Positions 1 to 63,950 are shown, numbered from the stretch's first letter. The stretch: DNA of 64,000 nucleotides from Deltaproteobacteria bacterium HGW-Deltaproteobacteria-8 (GCA_002840405.1 PHAR01000005.1:11894-75893), one strand, 5' to 3'. The notes: generated from the sequence alone by a model not told the origin. Numbers and translations are program-made.

Positions 1-100
1 CGCCGCTGGAGGTGGCCGGGTGACAATGGAGGTCGTCTGTGCAGGGGCTCCGGCGCGCGGCGAAGCAGGGCCGGGGGCAAGCCCACAGCGGGCCTGCTGG

Positions 101-53390: not shown

Positions 53391-53785
53391 GGCTGGCGCG
53401 CGCGTTTCGCGGCATGCGTCGTGTCCTGCGGACCGCCTCCCCATGGGCGAAACCGTCCGCGCACGCGAGTCTTTGACCCACGAGCAGCATCCGGCTGAGT
53501 GTCCCAACACCGCCTGAGGGCAGAGAGGCCTCCCCGCCAGCTCCTGGCGCGCGTGCCGCGCCTCTGGCGGCGAGGACTTGCGCATAGAGGCTCTCGGGCC
53601 GAGCCGCACAGCGCTGATTCGTCCGACCGTCTCTCTCCGCCTCATCATCCAGCCGCAACTCCCTGCCCCTCTCTCCATCCTGCCTCTGGGGTCGCCCACC
53701 GCACGCCCCACCTGTCCCAGCACTCAGGCCGCTGGCAAAAACCTGCGCCAGGCACTTCGGTTCTGACAAAACAGACCCTTGCCTG

Positions 53786-53872
53786 AACCCTGTCAAGAGG
53801 AGATTTTTGTCCTTTTGCCGGCCAAATATAGTCAAATTTTGTCCAGTAGCAAAAGACGGGGTATACTGCGCC
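53786..53872 (+). promoter_or_regulatory. Conserved ~90 bp promoter element, copy 2 (upstream of the tail/lysis operon)
   Basis: AACCCTGTCAAGAGGAGATTTTTGTCCTTTTGCCGGCCAAA-N10-TTTTGTCC-17-TATACT (53862-53867). Confidence 0.85.
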
Positions 53873-53919
53873 TCAGCCGGACCGCGCCGGGTCCTTCAAC
53901 CCTCAACAACGAGCGACGC

Positions 53920-54384
53920 ATGCCTGCACCCTTCCTGGCCATCGCCTTCCACCCCGCCCATGCGGCGGACATCCGCCTCAGGCCCGGCGCGGTCTTGGCC
54001 CTGGCCGGAATGCCGCCGCTTAAGGAACTCGCCCAGGCCTACCACGCCGCTGGTCCAGCCTGGACCGTGCTTGCTGGCGACACGGCCATCGCCTGCGGCG
54101 GGGCGGTGCGCTTCTGGCCCGGCGTGGGCGAGTGCTGGTGCTGGGCCGGTGCGGCCGTGGACGCCTCGCCCGTGGCCTTTGCCCGGCTGGCCCGGCGCGT
54201 GTTGGAAGACTTGGGCCGGGAGCACGGCTTCCATCGCCTGCAGCTTCACGCGCGCCTGGACGATGCGCGCGCCAACCGTTTCGCCCTGCACCTCGGCTTC
54301 ACCCTGGAGGGCCGGTGCCCCGGCTATGGCCCTGACCAGTCAACACACAATCTCTACGGGAGGTTCCGCACATGGAAGGAGTGA
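53920..54384 (+). CDS. Podovirus GNAT-like virion-associated protein (T7 gp13 / BPP-1-type position)
   Basis: IACGG..WPGVGECW..HRLQ..ANRFALHLGFTLEG pattern, adjacent to tail genes. Confidence 0.6.
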   Translation: MPAPFLAIAFHPAHAADIRLRPGAVLALAGMPPLKELAQAYHAAGPAWTVLAGDTAIACGGAVRFWPGVGECWCWAGAAVDASPVAFARLARRVLEDLGREHGFHRLQLHARLDDARANRFALHLGFTLEGRCPGYGPDQSTHNLYGRFRTWKE

Positions 54385-54947
54385 GCACCGTCATGCCCCT
54401 GGCCCTGAACATGGGCACCGGCATCTTGAAGGACGTGCTGCAAGGCGCCGCAAGCAGCGGCGGCAGCAAGACCAGCGAGATAGCGGAGCAGCGGGCCCAG
54501 ACCGCCGAGGCCCAGGCCAAGCGGCAGGCCGAGGCCGAGCAGCGAAGCGCCCGCGAAAAGACCGAGGCCCTGCGCGAGGACAACCAGCACCGCCGGGCGC
54601 GCGCCCGCGTGGCCGCGGCCGGGTCCGGGCTGGAGTTCTCCGGCACCTCGCTGCTGAACCTGCAGAGCCTGGACCACCAGCAGGAGGAACAGCTGGGCCA
54701 GCTTCTGGGCGATTCCTCCCGCCGCGTGGCCGACATCCTGGCCTCCGGGGCCGAGCAGGCCCAGAGCATCCGCCTGTCTGGCCGACGCAGCCGCGGGACT
54801 GGCGGCCTGGGCTCGCTGCTGGGCCTGGGCGGCCAGGTGCTCAACGGCGGCCGCTTCGGCGGGAGCGGCGGGGTCTTGGACGAAATTCCTCGCGGCAGTA
54901 ACGGCGGCTCAGACGGCTGGGGCGGCAGTTCCGTGTTTGAGTATTAA
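54372..54947 (+). CDS. Internal virion (ejection) protein B-like
   Basis: Helical Ala/Gln-rich protein with ARVAAAGSGLEFSGTS motif and a Gly-rich tail, typical of T7 gp14-like proteins. Confidence 0.6.
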   Translation: MEGVSTVMPLALNMGTGILKDVLQGAASSGGSKTSEIAEQRAQTAEAQAKRQAEAEQRSAREKTEALREDNQHRRARARVAAAGSGLEFSGTSLLNLQSLDHQQEEQLGQLLGDSSRRVADILASGAEQAQSIRLSGRRSRGTGGLGSLLGLGGQVLNGGRFGGSGGVLDEIPRGSNGGSDGWGGSSVFEY

Positions 54948-54962
54948 CCAGCGGAGGTCCCC

Positions 54963-57125
54963 ATGTCCCTCGTGCCCATGATCCTGACCAACTTCACCTC
55001 CGGGGAGCTCTCGCCCCGGCTCTCCGGCCGCGTGGACGTGGCCAAGTACTTCAACGGCTGCCAGACCCTGGAGAACTTCCTGGTGCATCCGCACGGCGGC
55101 ATCACGCGGCGCAGCGGCATGCGCTACGTGGCCGACGCCGTGAGCCACGGCAGCCCCTCGGCGCTGCTGTCCTTTGAGGATGCCCAGGGCCAGGCCTGGG
55201 TGCTGGAGTTTGGCGAACGCGCGGACGGCCAGGGCGTGCTGCGCTTCTTCTACGATGGCGGCCGCGTGCAAAATGCTCAGGGCGGGACGCTGGAGTTGTC
55301 TACGCCCTACGTGGCCTCACACCTGGCAGAGCTGCGCGCCGTGCAGGACCGCCAGGAGCTCATCCTGACCCACCCGCTGGTGGCGCCGCAGGTGCTCTCG
55401 CGCACCGAGGGCGGCGGCTTCGCCCTGGCCGCGCTCAGCCTCGACGCCCAGCCCGAGACCTGGGGCCAGGACAACTGGCCGGCCATGTGCTGCCTGCATG
55501 AGGACCGCCTGGTGTTCGCCGCGACAAAGAGCGAGCCCTTCACCCTGTGGTTCTCGCGCACCTCCGGCCACCGGGACTTCCGCCTGTGCACGCGGGAGGT
55601 GCCGCTCACCGGCTGGGACGACTTCGAGATCGCCGACGGCTCCGGCGACTCCAGAGCGGACGGCCGGGCGGGCGACACCTTCCTGCTCCTCGGCGGCGAC
55701 TGCTTCAGCCAGGACTCGGCCCTGTGCGGCGACGTGTACGACGAGGACGGCGAGGCCACGCCCCGCTACTACCGCTACACCGGCCAGCGCATCATCACGG
55801 CCTCGAGCGGCTCCCTGCGCGCCACCTTCAGGGATGCTCCCTCCACCACGGCGGAGATAGAGAGCGTGCGCAAGGCCGACGGCGCGCTCAACGCCGGGTT
55901 CTGGGAGGAGTTCGAGGTGGGCGCCCGCATCCATGCCGATCCCGGCTCGGACCCGCTGGACGACGACGGCCTGGAGATCACCCTCTCGGCCCAGCAGGGC
56001 GGGCGCATCTGCTTCCTGGCCCCGCGCGACAAGCTGTGGATCGGCGCCACCTGCGGCGAGTGGACCGTGTCCGGAAGCTCGCTGGGCGCGCCGGTGACCC
56101 CCGGCGGGGTCAAGGCCGACCGCCAGGGCACCAGCGGCGCGGCGCAGGCTGCGGCCTGCCCGGCGGGCCACGCCACGCTGTACGTGCAGCGCTCGGGCCG
56201 CAAGGTGCGTGAGATGGCCTACCGCTTCGAGTCCGACGCCTACACCTCGCGCGACCTGACCCTGCTCTCGGCCCATGTGGCCGCGCCGGGCCTGACCCAG
56301 CTGGCCTTTGCCCAGGAGCCCGACCCGGTGCTCTTCTGCGTGCGCGCCGACGGCGTGCTCGTGGCCATGACCTATTTGCCGGACCAGGACGTCTGCGCCT
56401 TTTCGCGCATCGTCACCGATGGCGCGGTGGAGGCCGCCTGCGTGGTCTCCAACGATGCGGAAGGCCGCGACGAGCTCTGGCTCGTGGTGCGCAGGAGCGT
56501 GCCAGACCCTGCGGATCCGGACGGCCAGCCGCTCACCCGGCGGTTCATCGAAACCCTGGAGCCGGCCTTTTCCGAGGACGCGGCCAGCGTTGCCGAGGCC
56601 TTCTTCCTGGACGCGGGCCTGAGCTACGCGGGCGAGCCGGTGGCCGAGCTTACGGGCCTGGCGCACCTGGCTGGGCGCAGCGTGCAGGTGCTGGCCGACG
56701 GCGCGGTGCTGCCCGAGCGCATTGTGTCCGCATCAGGCTCCATCACCCTGCCGCGCCCGGCCAGCCGGGTCCACGCCGGGTTGGGCTACACCTCGACGCT
56801 GAAGCCCATGCGCCTGGAATTCAGCGGCGCGCGCGGCAGCTCGCAGACGCGCACCAAGCGCATCACCGAGGTCTCGGTGCGCCTGCACCGCAGCCTGGGC
56901 GGCAAGGTCGGCCCGGGTGGCGAGCAAAACGGCGGGCATCTGGAGCCGCTGCTCTACCGCACCAGCGCCGACCCCATGGACGGCCCGCCCGCCCTGTTCA
57001 CCGGCGACAAGTCCGTGCGCTTTCCCCAGGGCTGGGGCACGGACGGCGTGCTCACCGTGGTCCAGGACCAGCCCCTGCCCATGACCGTGCTGCTTGTGGC
57101 GCCAACCCTGGCCATCAACGAATAG
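54963..57125 (+). CDS. Podovirus tail tubular protein B / nozzle (T7 gp12-like)
   Basis: N-terminal NFTSGELSPRL.GRVD..KY.NGCQ..ENF..PHGG..RRSG, middle YVQRSGRKVRE..Y, and C-terminal QDQPLPMTVL. Confidence 0.85.
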   Translation: MSLVPMILTNFTSGELSPRLSGRVDVAKYFNGCQTLENFLVHPHGGITRRSGMRYVADAVSHGSPSALLSFEDAQGQAWVLEFGERADGQGVLRFFYDGGRVQNAQGGTLELSTPYVASHLAELRAVQDRQELILTHPLVAPQVLSRTEGGGFALAALSLDAQPETWGQDNWPAMCCLHEDRLVFAATKSEPFTLWFSRTSGHRDFRLCTREVPLTGWDDFEIADGSGDSRADGRAGDTFLLLGGDCFSQDSALCGDVYDEDGEATPRYYRYTGQRIITASSGSLRATFRDAPSTTAEIESVRKADGALNAGFWEEFEVGARIHADPGSDPLDDDGLEITLSAQQGGRICFLAPRDKLWIGATCGEWTVSGSSLGAPVTPGGVKADRQGTSGAAQAAACPAGHATLYVQRSGRKVREMAYRFESDAYTSRDLTLLSAHVAAPGLTQLAFAQEPDPVLFCVRADGVLVAMTYLPDQDVCAFSRIVTDGAVEAACVVSNDAEGRDELWLVVRRSVPDPADPDGQPLTRRFIETLEPAFSEDAASVAEAFFLDAGLSYAGEPVAELTGLAHLAGRSVQVLADGAVLPERIVSASGSITLPRPASRVHAGLGYTSTLKPMRLEFSGARGSSQTRTKRITEVSVRLHRSLGGKVGPGGEQNGGHLEPLLYRTSADPMDGPPALFTGDKSVRFPQGWGTDGVLTVVQDQPLPMTVLLVAPTLAINE

Positions 57126-57182
57126 CCCCGGCGAACAGCCAAACACGAGAGCCGCCCGCACGCGGCAAAGGAGTCCACCCCG

Positions 57183-58064
57183 ATGACCCTGTCCACCCAG
57201 ACCTCCAAGACCACCTACACCGGCAACGGGGCCACCTGCGTGTTCCCCGTGCCCTTCCCCTTCCTGCGGCCGGACGACATCAAGGTCCTGCTGCGCCAGG
57301 GCGGCGCGGAGCTGCCGCTTCTGCCCGGCACGCACTACAACGTGGAGGGCGCGGGCAGCTCCTCTGGCGGCAGCCTGACCCTGGTGGAGCCGCCGGCCAC
57401 GGGCCAGGTCCTGCTCATCTACCGCGACCCGGCCATCGTGCAGGAGGTGGACTACGTGGAGAACGCGGCCTTCCCGGCCGAAACCCACGAGGCCGCCCTC
57501 GATCTGCTGACCATGATCTGCCAGGCCCTGGACGAGAAGATCGGCCGCGCCGTGCTGTATCCCGTGAGCACTCCCCAGCAAGACATCCGGGACAGCTCAG
57601 CCTTCCTGGGCTCCTGCGAGAGCGCCCGCGAACAGGCCCTGGCCGCCGAAACCCAGGCCAGCGCCTTGGCCGCCCAGGCCCAGACCCAGGCCGCTCTGGC
57701 CGGGAATTTCGCCGCCCAGGCCCAGGCCAGCGTGGGCGGGCTGCGCGTGAGCGCGGGCGATACCACGCCCGGCAACCTGTCGGCCAAGCTTCTCGCAGGC
57801 GACGGCCTGGCCGAGACCCTGCTCTTCCCCGGCGCGGACGAGTCCCTGCGGCTGTCCCTCGCCCTGGCGGAAGTCTCTGGCCTGGAGCTGCTCGGCGGCC
57901 TGCTGCGCGCCCAGGTGGCGCCCGGCGGCGGACTCTTGCGCACGGGCTTGGGCCTGGCGGCGGACCTCGGCCCCGGCCCGGACCAGCTTTCCACAAACCT
58001 GTCCCTGCGGCCCGTCATGGTGGCTGGCCGCGTCCTCAACCACACAGCCCTGGGAGGCATGTAG
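57183..58064 (+). CDS. Short tail-fibre adaptor with a T7 gp17-like N-terminal domain
   Basis: YTGNG.T..FPVPF.F...DDIKV, IYRDP..Q..DY and HEAALDLLTMICQ motifs. Only 293 aa. Confidence 0.75.
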   Translation: MTLSTQTSKTTYTGNGATCVFPVPFPFLRPDDIKVLLRQGGAELPLLPGTHYNVEGAGSSSGGSLTLVEPPATGQVLLIYRDPAIVQEVDYVENAAFPAETHEAALDLLTMICQALDEKIGRAVLYPVSTPQQDIRDSSAFLGSCESAREQALAAETQASALAAQAQTQAALAGNFAAQAQASVGGLRVSAGDTTPGNLSAKLLAGDGLAETLLFPGADESLRLSLALAEVSGLELLGGLLRAQVAPGGGLLRTGLGLAADLGPGPDQLSTNLSLRPVMVAGRVLNHTALGGM

Positions 58065-58065
58065 C

Positions 58066-58479
58066 ATGGCAGCGAACAAGGAACCCATCTTCGTCGGCGC
58101 GATCAGCGGCAAGATCACCGAGCTCTCGGACACCACGGAAGCAGACGTTTTTGCGGGCGACGCCACGGAGTCCACCCGGCTGGACGTGCTGGCCGTCAGC
58201 ACCGACGACACGGCCGACAAGGACCTGATCGTCCTGTTCTTTGACGGCACGGCCAGCAGGAAGGCCACCACGGTCAAGATCCCGCTCAGCAGCGGCAACA
58301 CCAACGCGCTCGCCCCGGTGAACCTGCTCGCCAGCGCGCAGATGGCCCCCCATGTCCAGGTGGACGCGGCGGGCAACAAGTTCCTGAATCTGCCTCCGGG
58401 CTGGTCCATCAAGGCCCAGGAAGCCGCCGCCCCAACCAGCGGCAAGAAGATGTGGGTCTTTGCGCGCGGCGGGAAGTAA
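58066..58479 (+). CDS. Hypothetical phage structural protein (tail-associated)
   Basis: Tightly coupled to its neighbours in the tail operon, with host-like codon usage. Confidence 0.6.
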   Translation: MAANKEPIFVGAISGKITELSDTTEADVFAGDATESTRLDVLAVSTDDTADKDLIVLFFDGTASRKATTVKIPLSSGNTNALAPVNLLASAQMAPHVQVDAAGNKFLNLPPGWSIKAQEAAAPTSGKKMWVFARGGK

Positions 58480-58483
58480 TAGC

Positions 58484-59586
58484 ATGAGCCCGCGCATGTC
58501 CACACACGAGGGCGGCGGGGCCTGGCCCGGCGGGGTCGGGGGCCTGCCTCCCGACCCTCTCGGCAGGGCTCCCGGCAACTACTTCGGGGACGGCTCGGAC
58601 GGCGCTGCGGTCATCGCCTCCAGCACCTCCCTGGCCTCGGTCCAGGACGGCGACATGGTGGTGCGGCAGTATACCAGTCTGACCATCAACGCCGGGGCCA
58701 CCCTCACCGTGTCGAGCCGCTGCCGAGGCTCCTGCTGTACGTCGATGGCGACCTCACCGTGAATGGGGTCATCAGCATGACGGCCAGGGGGTGCGCGGCC
58801 AATCCGCTGGACGCCGTGGCCACTGCGGACACCCCTGTGGCCCCGTCCGATGGGCACGGGGTCCCTGTCGGCGGCATCGTCCTCCGGCGCAAGAAGGCCG
58901 GAGCCACGGACTTCAACAGCGACTCGAACCTGTTCCACGGGTGCGGCGCCGCCGCTGTGGCCGCTGAGGCCAGGCAGGGCAGGGTGTTGGGCAACGGCAA
59001 GGCCTGGACTCTGCCCGTGGTTGGCGGCGCTGGAGGCCCAGGCACGGCTGGAAAGACGGGCGGCATGAAGCCGCTTGCCCCAGGCGGTGGCGGCTCCGGT
59101 TCGTCCTACTATTCAGGAGTGCCTGGTCGTGGAGGTAACGGGACCTGCTTCTCCGGCGGCGTGGGCAGCGGCGGTGGCGGGCCTGCCTTGCAGGCGAATG
59201 ACGTGGGAGGCTCTGGCGGTAACGCGGGCAACAATGGCTCTACGGGCGCCTGTGGCGGAGTCGGCAATCCTGGGGGGGCGCCTGTCAACGGCGGTACGGC
59301 TCAGAACAGCGGCACAGGCGGTCTGCTCATTCTCCTCGTGAGCGGAAACGTCAGCATCGGGGCGTCAGGCAAGATCGAGGCCCACGGTGTCGGCGGCGTC
59401 ACAGGCGGCGTGCCTGGTGGCTGCTCTGGCGGTGGCAACATTCTCATCCTACGGGGTGGCACTTACGCCAACTCTGGCACTGTGGCGGCCAACGGCGGCA
59501 TGGGTGGCGATGGCTCCCCTTGGGGGCTCGGAATTGGCTATGGCGGCGTTGGCTCTGTCACCGTTGATTCCATCGACAACAGATAG
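58484..59586 (+). pseudogene. Glycine-rich tail fibre / receptor-binding protein interrupted by a 1 bp frameshift (or a sequencing error)
   Basis: Frame 1 reads ..TLTVSSRCRG and the other frame continues LLLYVDGDLTVNGVISMTARG near 58725-58731. The joined reading is continuous and protein-like. Confidence 0.7.
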
Positions 59587-59595
59587 GAGGAAAAC

Positions 59596-59946
59596 ATGAT
59601 TTTGTTGCACCATTCAGAAGTGAAGCTCTCGCGCGACCTGCTCTCGGCCCTGCCGGAAAACTGCGGCTGCGTGGACTGGACCAGTGACGCCCAGCGTGAG
59701 GAATACCTGGCCCAGGCTGTGGCCTTGGGCAGCCCTTCGCCCTCGGCCTTTCCCACAGTGGTCGTGGACGTGCCCGCCTATGCGGACGACCGGCCGGTCT
59801 TTGGCCCGGAGGGCGAGTTCCTGGGCATGGCCGTGGTGACGGTGCCTGCGCACATGGAGGCCTTGCGCCTGCCCGCAAGTTGGGACGCGGTGGCCTCGTT
59901 CACGGCCTCGGTGGCGGCCCGCGCGCTGCTGCGGCCCGCCGTGTAG
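59596..59946 (+). CDS. Hypothetical protein (possible fibre assembly chaperone)
   Basis: GGAGG RBS, directly after the fibre gene. Confidence 0.55.
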   Translation: MILLHHSEVKLSRDLLSALPENCGCVDWTSDAQREEYLAQAVALGSPSPSAFPTVVVDVPAYADDRPVFGPEGEFLGMAVVTVPAHMEALRLPASWDAVASFTASVAARALLRPAV

Positions 59947-59972
59947 CCTGCTGTATGGAAGGAGGACGAGCC

Positions 59973-60356
59973 ATGCACCAGCCCTGCGGCTTCCACGATC
60001 AGTTCATGGAGCAGATCCGCGATGCGCTCCTGGGCCTGAAGGACCAGATGCGCGTCGGCATCGAGGCCGTGGCCGTGCAGTCGCGCGCCAACGGGGAGGC
60101 CCTGGAGCGCATCGCCGAGTCCCAGTCGGCCCGGCGCGAGCTCTGCGCCCAGCAGGCGGGACGCCTCGCGGCCCTGGAGCGCGGGGCGGACCTGCACCGC
60201 GAGGCCCATGCCCAGTCGCGCGAGGAGCACTTGACCGAACGCGCGGACCTGTGGAGCGCGGTGAACCGCCTGCGCTTCCACGTCTACGTGGGCCTGGGCG
60301 TGGGGCTGGTGCTGCAGCTCGTCGGTCCCTTCGTGCTTGGGGCCGTGCTGAAATAG
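59973..60356 (+). CDS. Coiled-coil protein with a C-terminal TM helix (lysis-cassette member)
   Basis: GGAGG RBS, heptad-rich body, VYVGLGVGLVLQLVGPFV TM, upstream of the holin. Confidence 0.6.
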   Translation: MHQPCGFHDQFMEQIRDALLGLKDQMRVGIEAVAVQSRANGEALERIAESQSARRELCAQQAGRLAALERGADLHREAHAQSREEHLTERADLWSAVNRLRFHVYVGLGVGLVLQLVGPFVLGAVLK

Positions 60357-60404
60357 CCTGGCCAAACAGCCCAGTAACCGGCCAAGAAAACAGGAGGCTC
60401 CCCC

Positions 60405-60806
60405 ATGCTGCTCGATTTCATCCCGCTCATCGGCGCGGCGGCCCAGAAGCTGCTCGACCTGATCCCGGACCCGGGCGCACGGGCCAAGGCCGCCGAGGAC
60501 TACCAGCGCGCGCTCCTGGACATCGTGGCCAAATCCGAGGCCGACCAGCGCGACATCAACAAGGCCGAGGCGGCCAACCCGACCCTCTTCGTGGCCGGCT
60601 GGCGGCCAGCCATCGGCTGGGTCTGCGCGGGCGCGCTGGCCTTCCAGTACATGGCCCGGCCCCTGTGGGTCTGGGCGGCCGGGGTCTGGTGGCCGTCTGT
60701 CCCGCCCCCTCCGGCCCTGGACGACATGCTCTGGCAGTTGATGTTCGGCATGCTCGGCATGGGCGGCTTGCGGACCTTGGAGAAGGTGAAGGGGGCGGGC
60801 AAATGA
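60405..60806 (+). CDS. 3TM holin (GTA-type holin family-like)
   Basis: D..PDP..RAKA, INKAEAA..TLFVAGWRPAIGW and LFGMLGMGGLRTLEKVKG patterns. Confidence 0.8.
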   Translation: MLLDFIPLIGAAAQKLLDLIPDPGARAKAAEDYQRALLDIVAKSEADQRDINKAEAANPTLFVAGWRPAIGWVCAGALAFQYMARPLWVWAAGVWWPSVPPPPALDDMLWQLMFGMLGMGGLRTLEKVKGAGK

Positions 60807-61213
60807 ACGCGCAGCGCCTGGCCGAGGACCTCCCGCGCGACGAGGGTCTGCGCCTCAAACCCTACCGCTGCACAGCCGGGCGGCTGACCATCGGCGTGGG
60901 CCGCAACCTGGACGACCGGGGCATCACCGAATCCGAGGCGCTCTTGCTGCTGGACAACGACATCAAGGACTGCTGGGGCCGGCTGGCGGCGGCGCAGCCT
61001 TGGGTTCTGGCCGCGCCGGAGGCCGTGCAGGAGGTGCTGGTCAACATGTGCTTCAACCTGGGCCTGGCCGGGTTGCTCGGGTTCCGGCAGACCCTGGCGC
61101 TGCTGCAGGCCGGTCGCTTTGCCGAGGCCGCAGCTGCGATGCTGCGCTCCAAATGGGCAGGCCAGGTGGGCGCGCGGGCCGAGCGGCTGGCGCAGAGGCT
61201 CCGGGAACTGTAA
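60803..61213 (+). CDS. Phage lysozyme (T4-like, GH24) endolysin
   Basis: DEGLRLKPYRCTAGRLTIGVG (E-x8-C-x5-T triad), NMCFNLG and SKWAGQVGARA motifs. Confidence 0.9.
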   Translation: MNAQRLAEDLPRDEGLRLKPYRCTAGRLTIGVGRNLDDRGITESEALLLLDNDIKDCWGRLAAAQPWVLAAPEAVQEVLVNMCFNLGLAGLLGFRQTLALLQAGRFAEAAAAMLRSKWAGQVGARAERLAQRLREL

Positions 61214-61467
61214 CACGCAGGCCGGACGCCTCCGGCAAACCCGGCTGGACTCGTCCGGCCGAGTCTTCTGCCCAGCCGAACTCCGCCCCCCAGCCGAACC
61301 CGCCCGCACCCACTGCCTGATCCCCTCGGCTCAAATTTCTGCGCGCGCCAGGGCCAACGCAAACCACCCAACGCTTAATCCCCCAGCGCGACAACTTCCG
61401 ACGCAAGACGGCCCGGCCAGGCATGCAAACCTGACCGGGCCGTTGCCGTATTGGCCGGGGAGGGGGG

Positions 61468-62355
61468 CTAGGAGGCGCGCAGGGCCGGAGTCTTTTCGCC
61501 GGGGTACAGGGCCTCGAAGCCCTGCTGCACCTGGCGCACGAACGCCGTGTCGCGGCGCGAGGGGTCGAAGTAGCGCGGGTCGCGCATCATCTCGCGCAGG
61601 CGCTGCGGGGTCAGGCTGGCGGCCGCCCCGCCGTTCTTGCCGCGCAGGGAGCTCTCGCTCACCAGCGGGGCCATGCGCGCAAAGGCCTGGACCACGCAGG
61701 CGTCGTCCGCCGCGCCCGACTGCTCCAGGGCCTGCATCAGCGCCGCCCCGCCCAGGGCCAGCACCGCCTTGCGCGCGGACTCGAGCACGCTCTGGGCCTC
61801 GCCTCCGTGGGCCTGGCGCAGGCTCGAGAGCTCGCGCTCACGGCGCCTGCTGCGCTCGGCCTTGGCCTTGTCCGTGTGGGCGCGCAGGCCCTCCACGTTC
61901 AGCGGCAGGAACCAGGCGTAGAGGCCTCCGGCCTGGGCGTCGGAAAGGTCCAGTTCGTGGGCCTTGGCCAGGAACGCGCCGCGCAGGGCCGTATCCACGC
62001 GGAAGTCCTCGGGCAGCTCGACCTCGGGCAGCCGGTAGTCCTCCGGCGATTCCGGGCGGCTGCCCTGGACAGATCCCTGTGCCGAACCCTGGGACGATCC
62101 TTGAGACAAGAGCGACCCCTCGGGCTCGGTCTTGCGCCCCAGCAGACGCTGGGCATGCACCAGGGCCTTCAGGGCCTCCTCGGCCGAGGCGTACTTGGCC
62201 AGGGCCGGGTGGCGGCGCAGGGGGATCTGCGTCTCCTGGCCCGCCTCGTCGCGGCCGGGCGCGGTGAGGTCCTCGGGCAGGGCGTTGCGCCAGTCGCCGG
62301 GGGCGGGGTTCTGGGCCGGGGTGCGTTTCTGGGCCGGGGTGGGGGCATCGGGCAT
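61468..62355 (-). CDS. Podovirus capsid scaffolding/assembly protein
   Basis: WRNALPEDL, LAKY.S.EE..KA..HAQRLLG, PESPEDY, AHELDLSDAQ and DPRYFD..VRQV motifs. Confidence 0.7.
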   Translation of the reverse strand: MPDAPTPAQKRTPAQNPAPGDWRNALPEDLTAPGRDEAGQETQIPLRRHPALAKYASAEEALKALVHAQRLLGRKTEPEGSLLSQGSSQGSAQGSVQGSRPESPEDYRLPEVELPEDFRVDTALRGAFLAKAHELDLSDAQAGGLYAWFLPLNVEGLRAHTDKAKAERSRRRERELSSLRQAHGGEAQSVLESARKAVLALGGAALMQALEQSGAADDACVVQAFARMAPLVSESSLRGKNGGAAASLTPQRLREMMRDPRYFDPSRRDTAFVRQVQQGFEALYPGEKTPALRAS

Positions 62356-62421
62356 GATGGTCTCCTTGGTCTGGGGTGGCTGAGTGGCCCGGGCGCGGCC
62401 CCATGCCGGGCCGGGCGCTCG

Positions 62422-62510
62422 CGCCAGTATACGCCATGTTTTTGCCACGGGACAAAAAATACCCAGATTTGGCCGGTAAAAGGACAAAAATTTCCCCTTG
62501 ACAGGGTTTC
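62422..62510 (-). promoter_or_regulatory. Conserved ~90 bp promoter element, copy 3 (upstream of the scaffold gene)
   Basis: Minus strand reads AACCCTGTCAAGGGGAAATTTTTGTCCTTTTACCGGCCAAA-N10-TTTTGTCC-17-TATACT (62426-62431). Confidence 0.85.
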
Positions 62511-62871
62511 AGTCCAGGGGCAGTTCCGCTGCCTGGAGCACCCGCTGATTGGTGAAGCCGAACAGGCGCGTGAACTTGGGCCAGCGCGGGTCGGCCTCGA
62601 TCCCCGGCTCCACGCGCAGGCCCACGATGCGCTTCTTGCCCAGCTGCCTCGCCATGCGCTTCAGCTCCTCCATGTCGGCGCGCAGGGCGCGCACCGTGGC
62701 CGGACCGAAGCGCAGCACCGTGAGGTGCAGCTCAAGCGCGTCCGGATGCTCGGCCAGGGCGGCTGCGGCGTATTGCCCGGACCTGTCGGACAGGGAGTAA
62801 AAGCGCATGCGCCAGGGCTCGTGAAGCCCGGCAAGAGAGGAATGTGCATTTGCTTCCGCGATAATGGACAT
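62509..62871 (-). CDS. Hypothetical protein, possibly GNAT-like fold
   Basis: 120 aa ORF with GGAG RBS. Its C-terminal KFTRLFGF resembles RFALHLGF of 53920..54384. Confidence 0.55.
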   Translation of the reverse strand: MSIIAEANAHSSLAGLHEPWRMRFYSLSDRSGQYAAAALAEHPDALELHLTVLRFGPATVRALRADMEELKRMARQLGKKRIVGLRVEPGIEADPRWPKFTRLFGFTNQRVLQAAELPLD

Positions 62872-63201
62872 AATCGTTCTCCATTGCCGAATGATTTTGC
62901 TGCATTGCCTTGGCTGCGCAAGGTTTGTGGCGTTTTGCGGGTTCGAGAAATTGCCCTACTTTTCTGTTGCCAACCAAGATCAACGGGTATAATGACTTCG
63001 CGTGAAGGTACGGACCACCTCGTGTGCGTGGAATATCCGCGTGCATGTGTCAGGGTCGCGGCACCTCCTCTCCGGCTCCCTTGACCGCCAGCCTTGAGGC
63101 AAACGGCCGGGGGAAAGGTCCCAGTAGGGCCTAACCGGAGGTGCAGGAATTTCGTGTTCGTGTTTCACCACCACCACCACCACATTAAGAGGAAGGTTCC
63201 C

Positions 63202-63438
63202 ATGAAGAAGCTGTTCGCCGTCATGATCGTTGCTACCCTGGCCCTTGGCGTTTCCGCTTGCGGTGAGAAGAAAGCCGAAGAGAAGAAGGCTGAGCCCGCC
63301 GCTGCCGCTCCGGCCGCTGCCGCTCCGGCCGCTCCTGCTGAGGCCAAGCCCGCTGAAGTGAAGCCCGCTGACGCCGCTGCCCCGGCCGCCGCTCCCGCCG
63401 CTGAAGCCGCCAAGCCGGCCGAAGCCAAGAAGCCCTAA
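63202..63438 (+). CDS. Small Ala/Pro/Lys-rich lipoprotein (host-type)
   Basis: MKK signal, lipobox VSAC, AGAGGAAGG RBS, and highly-expressed-type codons (GCT, GAA). Confidence 0.8.
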   Translation: MKKLFAVMIVATLALGVSACGEKKAEEKKAEPAAAAPAAAAPAAPAEAKPAEVKPADAAAPAAAPAAEAAKPAEAKKP

Positions 63439-63458
63439 GGCTTAAGGCATCTGACCAC

Positions 63459-63493
63459 CCGAAGGGGGGCCGCAAGGCCCCCCTTCTTTTTTG
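63459..63493 (+). terminator. Intrinsic terminator of the lipoprotein gene
   Basis: GAAGGGGGGCC-GCAA-GGCCCCCCTTC followed by a T run. Confidence 0.8.
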
Positions 63494-63506
63494 CCTCCCG
63501 TGGGCC

Positions 63507-63842
63507 TCAGCGCCGTCTATCCGTCTGATCCGTCCGGCTTGCCTGGCGTTGTGGCATTGTCCCCTCGATCATCCGCCCGATGTACAGCGCCAAGCTGCGG
63601 CGGCCCTCATTGAAGGCCGCGCGCTGCGGGTCCGGGCTGAAGCTCGTCTCGCGCAGGAAGCCCTGGCGGGAAATGTCCGCCAGGATCAGCCGCCCGGCCT
63701 CGCCCTCAAAGGCGCGTGCATAGGCCTGGCGCAGGTCTGCCCGCTTCTGATCTGCCCGCTTCTGATCTGCCCGCTTCTGATCTGCCCGGTTCTGATCTGC
63801 CCGGTTCTGGCCTGTCCGGCTTGAATCTGTTTGTTCGCGCAT
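63507..63842 (-). CDS. Bbp19-like podovirus protein (normally between portal and scaffold)
   Basis: Y...F.GEAG..IL.D...F..TSF..DP...AFNEGRRS..L.I pattern, with an N-terminal pentapeptide repeat. Confidence 0.7.
   Translation of the reverse strand: MREQTDSSRTGQNRADQNRADQKRADQKRADQKRADLRQAYARAFEGEAGRLILADISRQGFLRETSFSPDPQRAAFNEGRRSLALYIGRMIEGTMPQRQASRTDQTDRRR
63736..63825. repeat. 15 bp tandem repeat (VNTR), 5 near-perfect copies plus 1 degenerate copy
   Basis: TCTGCCCG(C/G)TTCTGA units encoding Q(K/N)RAD on the minus strand. Confidence 0.9.
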
Positions 63843-63861
63843 GAGTGCCCCTCTTTTTCCC

Positions 63862-63950
63862 GTGAACATACACCTGGAAATCCGGCCCGGACAAAAATCA
63901 CCTGTTTTTGGCCGGTAAAAAGACAAAAATTCCCGGTTGACAGGTTTTGG
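63862..63950 (-). promoter_or_regulatory. Conserved ~90 bp promoter element, copy 4 (upstream of the Bbp19-like gene)
   Basis: Minus strand reads AACCTGTCAACCGGGAATTTTTGTCTTTTTACCGGCCAAA-N10-TTTTGTCC-17-TATGTT. Confidence 0.75.

Follow-up and report, generated by a model that had tools for sequence, protein, structure and literature searches.

A repeated promoter/operator element and the predicted regulon of a podovirus-derived particle in Desulfovibrionaceae

What ties together phage genes that lie scattered among the housekeeping genes of a bacterial chromosome? The question is raised by a stretch of 64,000 nucleotides from Deltaproteobacteria bacterium HGW-Deltaproteobacteria-8 (GCA_002840405.1 PHAR01000005.1:11894-75893; hereafter the window), in which an element of ~90 bp stands in front of separate phage-gene units. 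The window corresponds to C4:11894-75893 of a 3.51-Mb assembly in 13 contigs (genome label G000), with ~67% G+C. We favour, with a probability of about 0.78, the reading that the element is a σ70-type promoter fused to an upstream platform for a dedicated regulator, and that it defines the regulon of a gene transfer agent (GTA)-like particle derived from a podovirus.

The element and its copies

A first-pass annotation had placed three copies in the window, driving three phage-gene units, and these indeed align without gaps over ~85 nt: copy A at 53786-53875 (+), copy B at 62509-62422 (−) and copy C at 63948-63862 (−). The 23-nt core, TTTTTGTCYTTTTRCCGGCCAAA, has four matches in the window versus 0.00 expected (100 shuffles); the fourth belongs to copy D at 188-101 (−), which faces out of the window's left end and adds a fourth unit. 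The layout first described runs from CCTGTCAA through TTTTTGTC(C/T)TTTT, RCCGGCCAAA and a second TTTTGTCC to TATACT (TATGTT in copy C) 17-18 nt further on, and it was recovered as such. The TTGTCC box recurs as had been noted, but at 32 nt start to start in most copies and not at 31. In copy A, CTGTCAA lies at 53790-53796, the distal dyad (TTTTTGTCC..GGCCAAA) at 53804-53826, the −35-like TTGTCC at 53839-53844 and the −10 hexamer TATACT at 53862-53867. The corresponding CTGTCAA, TTGTCC and −10 positions on the minus strand are 62504-62498, 62455-62450 and 62431-62426 in copy B (TATACT), 63943-63937, 63894-63889 and 63870-63865 in copy C (TATGTT), and 183-177, 134-129 and 111-106 in copy D (TATACT). 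A consensus scan called σ70-like promoters in copies A (TTGTCC-17-TATACT) and B (TTGTCC-18-TATACT), each matching at 9 of 12 positions, among a total of five sites versus 0.4 expected, and copies C and D have the same hexamer layout. The element thus carries hexamers resembling TTGACA and TATAAT at the 16-18-nt distance of σ70 promoters.

Alignments of the nine full copies found in the genome (see below) and of 57 unique copies from the genus reveal a series of conserved blocks, namely an invariant CTGTCAA, GGGAATTTTTGTCCTTTT-CCGGCCAAAAA, (A)TTTTGTCC, AAAACC(G)GGG and TATACT, separated by spacers that vary in sequence and are fixed in length. The upstream part also includes the TTTTTGTCC-N7-GGCCAAAAA dyad. 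The second TTTTGTCC overlaps the −35, and the AAAACC(G)GGG box sits in the −35/−10 spacer. Conservation far upstream of the −35 had been pointed out in the first-pass annotation; it sets in abruptly with CTGTCAA, and the flanking sequences further upstream are unrelated even among species of the genus. Copy B begins immediately 3′ of the stop codon of the p120 gene, and a terminator-like hairpin (63998-63966) precedes copy C.

The genome-wide profile scan proposed at the outset was carried out on the whole assembly by fuzzy search and nhmmer, and it returned nine full copies (E values 1e-23 to 1e-25) and no others above noise. Beyond these, the assembly holds a truncated copy (C2:169347-169310) and a decayed copy (C2:112049), and a tenth, diverged copy (C3:391257) came from a relaxed architecture search. 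Each of the nine full copies faces its unit in the correct orientation, and the interval from the end of the −10 to the unit's first start codon ranges from 7 nt (large terminase) to ~490 nt (small terminase). Eight of the copies point into single-copy podovirus genes of HTVC010P/T7 type and the ninth fronts a disrupted Rhs toxin gene, so that the copies mark eight phage-particle units and one Rhs gene rather than housekeeping genes. Besides the units in and next to the window, those served are the large terminase, the small terminase, a small protein with the portal, the tail adaptor (gp11-like) and the Rhs-repeat toxin gene. Each structural gene is present once in the genome, and the units are distributed over four contigs, with housekeeping genes between them.

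Conservation and descent of the element

We searched 18 congeneric species and 12 genomes of the order's other families with a covariance model of the nine copies that used sequence only. Of the 18 species, 17 have the element, at 8-26 copies each, and none of the 12 other genomes has it; the genus itself is placed among the Humidesulfovibrio/'Desulfocurvus'-like Desulfovibrionaceae. The one congener that lacks the element also lacks the capsid gene, of which 16 of the 18 congeners carry an intact single copy. In a complete 3.0-Mb chromosome of the genus, eight copies are spread over 1.24-2.43 Mb. The same orthologous units follow everywhere (blastx of 1.5 kb downstream of 47 copies): capsid and p82, gp13-gp14-nozzle, Bbp19 and p120, scaffold, portal, gp11, both terminase subunits and Rhs. 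The same motif therefore stands before linked genes at orthologous loci across species, as a regulon site should.

For seven of the nine copies, the nearest copy in another genome is the one before the orthologous gene (identity 0.78-0.85), compared with an average of 0.68 among paralogs within the genome. Because ortholog copies are more alike than paralogs, the comparison indicates that the copies descend locus by locus and that their shared blocks are held by selection. Gene conversion or homogenisation among copies is ruled out by the same orthology signal. The capsid gene has a ratio of nonsynonymous to synonymous substitution rates of 0.19-0.34, and the capsid (88-95% identity) is about as strongly conserved as the product of a housekeeping neighbour (83-92%), which we take from its translation to be UTP-glucose-1-phosphate uridylyltransferase (UGPase) and whose gene follows the capsid unit. 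The order capsid-p82-UGPase is kept in 13 loci. These data, with the intact capsid gene of the 16 congeners, show vertical inheritance under purifying selection, as is characteristic of GTAs. Furthermore, particle, packaging and lysis genes are dispersed in the chromosome, and the units examined and their surroundings revealed no integrase, integration or replication module, in a search that did not cover the genome exhaustively.

In Pseudodesulfovibrio, 'Desulfovibrio' caledoniensis and other members of the family, whose capsids are 66-78% identical, the capsid gene is preceded by a diverged form of the architecture. The parts common to these genera are the CTGTCAA box near −80 (CCTGTCAA), a T-rich, phased middle, and GAAAACCGGGG followed by a TAnnnT −10 hexamer. 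A search pattern built from the shared parts alone picked up copies in three genomes from other genera (4, 8 and 7), placed ahead of the genes for capsid, portal, large terminase, gp11, nozzle and holin and of several Rhs genes. Lineage-specific versions occur in D. caledoniensis, in Pseudodesulfovibrio and in two metagenome-assembled genomes; the middle part is identical in all copies of a lineage and different between lineages. The stretch from CTGTCAA to the end of the −10 likewise has a set length in each lineage, which changes from one lineage to another in steps of about one helical turn: it measures 78-79 nt in the present lineage, 80 nt in a second and 87-88 nt in three more, and 98 nt in the diverged copy on C3. 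The −35 drifts across genera (TTGTCC, TTATCC, TTTCCC), and the −10 stays TAnnnT. The capsid gene was found in 34 of 201 sampled Desulfovibrionaceae genomes and in 14 of 67 genera.

Two relatives carry the genes contiguously, in the order portal-Bbp19-scaffold-capsid-p82-gp11-nozzle-gp13-gp14, and we regard this contiguous order as ancestral. One of the two, which carries the second capsid copy of a congener (G016), is a contiguous, prophage-like module (L057) with the order large terminase, portal, Bbp19, scaffold, capsid, p82, gp11, nozzle, gp13, gp14 and a gp15-like gene; it has a different large terminase and lacks the element, and is a possible model of the ancestor. The other (L054) is a half-dispersed cluster with three element-like promoters. 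The element may have originated either as a phage late promoter or as a host invention, L057 having no copy and L054 three.

A predicted platform for a regulator

Conservation of this kind could act on a transcript or on DNA. RNAalifold found no consensus structure for the 57 unique copies on either strand (0.0 kcal/mol), Rfam gave no match in 20 kb around the G000 copies, and the element is not followed by a terminator; from this we take the constraint to act on double-stranded DNA. These results bear on the proposal that the element, a repeated intergenic sequence of ~90 nt, is a transcribed RNA leader (antitermination or riboregulatory) or a selfish repeat (a miniature inverted-repeat transposable element or repetitive extragenic palindrome) that lies near the genes by chance. 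No conserved promoter lies upstream of the element, which itself ends in a properly spaced −35/−10 pair, every copy has the same orientation to its downstream gene, and no copies occur in unrelated contexts; we therefore hold this proposal to be extremely improbable. An RNA hairpin formed by the CCCTGT..ACAGGG dyad was considered separately and rejected, as its right arm varies without compensating changes. The abrupt onset at CTGTCAA, the lack of RNA structure and the conserved arrangement of units, which 17 of the 18 congeners keep unit by unit and other genera in diverged form, argue for the protein-binding platform, and for the regulon, suggested in the first-pass annotation.

The identity of the polymerase that uses the element has also to be weighed. 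T7-like structural genes are often accompanied by a polymerase of their own with highly conserved promoters, and conservation of the −35/−10 spacer is unusual for σ70 promoters, so that the element could be the promoter of a phage-type RNA polymerase or of a dedicated alternative σ factor. Such a promoter is very improbable in our view. The conserved region covers ~90 bp and has σ70 hexamers, versus ~23 bp for a T7-type promoter; the −10 varies across genera as TAnnnT, in σ70-like fashion; and no PF00940 candidate was found in the genome, a search in which the control was likewise silent. Moreover, the closest phage capsids are those of HTVC010P-type pelagiphages (45% identity), and phages of this type are not known to have an RNA polymerase of their own. 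A σ54 promoter was rejected as well: the element lacks GG-N10-GC. A σ54-like string, CTGGCAAAAACCTGC, lies at 53733-53747, 40 nt upstream of copy A, and is not conserved at orthologous loci.

In the mechanism that we propose, the promoter part would consist of the −35-like TTGTCC, the 17-18-nt spacer and the TATACT −10, and the platform of CTGTCAA ~80 nt upstream of the start, the TTTTTGTCC-N7-GGCCAAAAA dyad, TTTTGTCC over the −35 and the AAAACC(G)GGG spacer box. This platform would be read by a single regulator acting in trans, or by an activator together with a repressor, with genes that lie elsewhere, and all the dispersed units would be switched on together (terminase, portal, scaffold, capsid, adaptor, nozzle, internal proteins, fibre and holin-lysozyme); Rhs genes and cell-wall-targeting toxin/immunity cassettes would come under the same control in relatives. 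The factor at CTGTCAA, which probably also occupies the phased TTTT(R)YCC repeats, would contact the polymerase across the T-tract DNA, and the spacer box would be a likely second site, possibly for a repressor. We infer that a dedicated regulator binds at the element and that transcription starts after TATACT, as we do the sign of the regulation and the production of particles.

Activator dependence is favoured, because the −35 is poor and drifts between genera and the upstream box keeps to a constant distance in phase with the helix. The lysis cassette in the regulon (holin and lysozyme) makes it likely that a repressor acts as well, over the core promoter. Taken further, the argument from lysis would have repression do all the work: the σ70 core would be constitutively competent, the three TGTC-containing boxes and the spacer box would be operators for a cooperative CI/PrtR-like repressor, and induction would come by derepression alone. 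Indeed, the conserved blocks overlap the −35 and the spacer, the presence of holin and lysozyme in the regulon calls for a tight off-state, and such an operator array is compatible with the platform that we favour. Repression alone is nevertheless somewhat unlikely in our judgement, since other genera with degenerate −35 hexamers (TTATCC, TTTCCC) keep the distal box and its phased distance, which fits activation better, and since no LexA- or CI-like candidate was seen.

Several observations weigh against the platform-and-regulator reading. The core promoter, at 9 of 12 consensus positions in this genus, is not obviously weak and leaves room for pure repression. In neither G000 nor the 26-copy congener G017 does a transcription-factor gene follow any of the copies, so that an autoregulated regulator gene behind a copy was dismissed as a candidate. 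The PrtN family (PF11112) had no match in 31 genomes, and the control genomes gave none either. tblastn with Escherichia coli LexA found only a UmuD-like protein that has no DNA-binding domain (C8:71900-72331), and the genome seems to be devoid of a canonical LexA; the recA promoter, furthermore, is without the box. Finally, the intact related prophage L057, in a congener, does without the element. Control by the SOS response through LexA, which the resemblance of the CTGT-CA-ACAG palindrome to LexA half-sites had brought to mind, was rejected on the UmuD-like match and the recA promoter, and no structural or literature lead points to the Bbp19-like protein as the regulator. A literature search for transcriptome data was unproductive.

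The predicted regulon and its counterparts

The first gene of unit A (53920-54384, +) encodes a GNAT-like internal virion protein resembling T7 gp13 (phrog_4177, 1.9e-16; phrog_308, 2.7e-10), and is followed by a T7 gp14-family internal virion protein (54372-54947, +; PF24072, 2.2e-9; phrog_418) and by a T7 gp12-like tail nozzle (54963-57125, +; phrog_376, 3e-151; PDB 8ck1_A 'Tail Nozzle', 1.6e-64), which comes after gp11 in the contiguous relatives. The tail fibre gene (57183-58064, +) has a T7 gp17-type adaptor domain in its N-terminal ~125 residues (phrog_1640, 1.2e-32, and 17 other tail-fibre/spike families). Five open reading frames with no family matches (58066-60356, +), called from a frame plot of G+C at third codon positions, lead to a holin of the 'GTA release' family with three transmembrane segments (60405-60806, +; PF11351, 3.6e-18) and a phage lysozyme, the last gene of the unit (60830-61213, +, start approximate; PF00959, 3.5e-12, and frame plot). 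Host genes for a D-Ala-D-Ala carboxypeptidase and GGDEF proteins lie to the left of unit A.

Unit B consists of a scaffold-like gene (61468-62355, −; phrog_3742, 1.3e-16; phrog_458), which stands between Bbp19 and capsid in the contiguous relatives. Unit C begins with the gene for a Bbp19-like phage protein (63507-63842, −; PF25181, 1.4e-15), whose N-terminal RADQ(N/K) repeats are encoded by a 15-nt tandem repeat (~6 copies, 63736-63825), and continues with p120, a 120-aa protein (62509-62871, −) kept after Bbp19 across the genus. Unit D, in the orientation of copy D, comprises the major capsid gene (C4:11834-11004, −) and the gene of the 82-aa p82, just outside the window's left end. The capsid mRNA leader (~165 nt; window positions 1-100 and leftwards, C4:11835-11990) is conserved across genera (loci L038-L079); it contains repeated GGACACCCGG motifs and long GC stems and matches no Rfam family, and the GGACACCCGG motif is also found between scaffold and capsid in contiguous relatives. 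At the large terminase unit, which is followed by a gene that we take from its translation to be UvrA, the ATG is only 7 nt after the TATACT hexamer (C2:4719-4711), a distance so short that the mRNA translated here is probably leaderless. Within units, the antisense strand encodes two small proteins that have a signal peptide and are rich in Ala, Pro and Lys, one in the Bbp19-p120 interval (63202-63438, +) and one between the small-terminase promoter and its gene (C2:175329-175538, −), each with its own terminator.

The Rhs gene behind the element is split over two reading frames in G000 (C10:56847-57999). Three further Rhs fragments lie at C10:92531-92821, C2:65948-66112 and C2:111733-112049, and a decayed element precedes one of these. 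The particle genes of this genome are intact, and its regulon appears to be losing the toxin arm. The diverged copy (C3:391257-392841) fronts a lower-GC gene for a 173-aa protein with a CxxC..HPNCxC motif (weakly MuF-like) and two paralogous secreted proteins, and a homologue of the 173-aa protein is found behind the element in D. caledoniensis (L119). Short Rhs toxins are present behind the element in every genus examined, and in congeners up to ~15 extra toxin cassettes stand under it. In G017, the extra copies (L088-L106) front five Rhs genes and ~10 toxin/immunity cassettes, in which a secreted immunity-like protein follows each toxin, and promoter-linked cassettes also occur at two other loci (L016, L024). 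The cassette toxins have one of two shared N-terminal modules, both with G-x-K-x-G-A-G-x-K-P-Q-P-Y, and C-terminal domains of Tlde1 (PF10908, 1e-10), CHAP-like or LAS-peptidase-like type.

Because the same promoter drives toxin cassettes, Rhs genes and the weakly MuF-like protein, the regulon could conceivably build a podovirus-derived capsid that is loaded with polymorphic toxins and ejects them into neighbouring cells, instead of or besides a GTA. We consider this proposal speculative and rather unlikely. The particle would then be a counterpart of tailocins and contractile injection systems, but one with a head and under DNA pressure. The outer-membrane-pore protein, gp14, is retained, and a single gp15-like query, taken from the related prophage, had no homologue in G000, which would fit delivery into the periplasm.

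The σ70-type promoter with its upstream platform would thus offer a lineage-specific example of the regulon-defining promoter/operator of a domesticated phage system, and point to a family-wide, podovirus-derived regulon with co-regulated toxins; the literature searched held no description of such a Desulfovibrionaceae system. With the element as a compact sequence handle, the members of the regulon can be read off any genome in the clade (8-26 units per genome, 14 of 67 sampled Desulfovibrionaceae genera) and a host-maintained particle system can be told from prophage debris, and its 90 bp can serve as bait for the master regulator. With structural genes and toxin/immunity cassettes under one promoter, the question becomes whether the particles serve gene transfer, killing or both, in sulfate reducers relevant to corrosion, mercury methylation and gut ecology.

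In function, the nearest parallels are the RcGTA regulon and the P-box/PrtN regulon of the pyocins. The first-pass annotation had likened the element to the targets of GTA master regulators, an analogy that stands for function and fails for the structural genes, which are of podovirus type and unrelated to those of RcGTA. Like RcGTA of Rhodobacter capsulatus (GafA/CtrA) and the GafYZ-controlled GTA of Caulobacter, the present system has host-kept, vertically inherited, multilocus particle genes, a shared promoter architecture and, presumably, a regulator encoded elsewhere, and its holin belongs to the same Pfam family as that of RcGTA (PF11351). However, RcGTA has HK97-type siphovirus genes, whereas those found here are of HTVC010P/T7-type podovirus origin; the present genes form at least eight units of one or a few genes, a far more fragmented arrangement; the element is unrelated in sequence; and toxin cassettes are co-regulated in relatives. 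There is no homology to the RcGTA head-tail cluster that defines the Rhodogtaviriformidae, and membership among RcGTA-like viriforms is excluded because the gene set is of podovirus type.

In Pseudomonas aeruginosa, one P-box, under PrtN and PrtR, stands before the R/F tailocins with their lysis genes and before S pyocin toxin/immunity pairs, making one inducible regulon. Here too, one element stands before particle, lysis, Rhs and toxin/immunity units. It lacks, however, the ATTGnn(n)GTnn(n) repeats of the P-box; a PrtN homologue was not detected, in a search whose control was silent; and the genes are those of a podovirus with capsid, portal and terminase rather than a headless tail, with no SOS link found. 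The late promoters of temperate phages (Mu C, P2 Ogr) likewise serve units that share a weak −35, a conserved upstream activator site and a good −10. They resemble the present promoters in having several units with a weak −35 and a conserved upstream site, but their sites lie at −30 to −55 within one contiguous prophage, whereas conservation here extends to about −85 and the units are scattered round the chromosome; the TGT-N12-ACA motif of P2 Ogr is absent from the element.

The same bacterial family harbours Dd1 of Desulfovibrio desulfuricans, whose particle is reportedly short-tailed. The literature searched describes Dd1, a podovirus-like GTA (Rapp and Wall 1987, cited in PMC11841831), as characterised only cursorily. 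A link to Dd1 was considered and set aside, the capsid search having returned no D. desulfuricans locus and the capsid gene occurring in just 14 of the 67 sampled genera. FpGTA of Faecalibacterium prausnitzii (2026; PMC12946183) is reported as the first podovirus-like GTA-like element. FpGTA has two operons, a Firmicute host and packaging data, whereas the Desulfovibrionaceae regulon has 9-26 promoters and is predicted from sequence; the two are alike in their GTA-like nature, their probable podovirus morphology and their distribution over more than one operon (PMC12946183).

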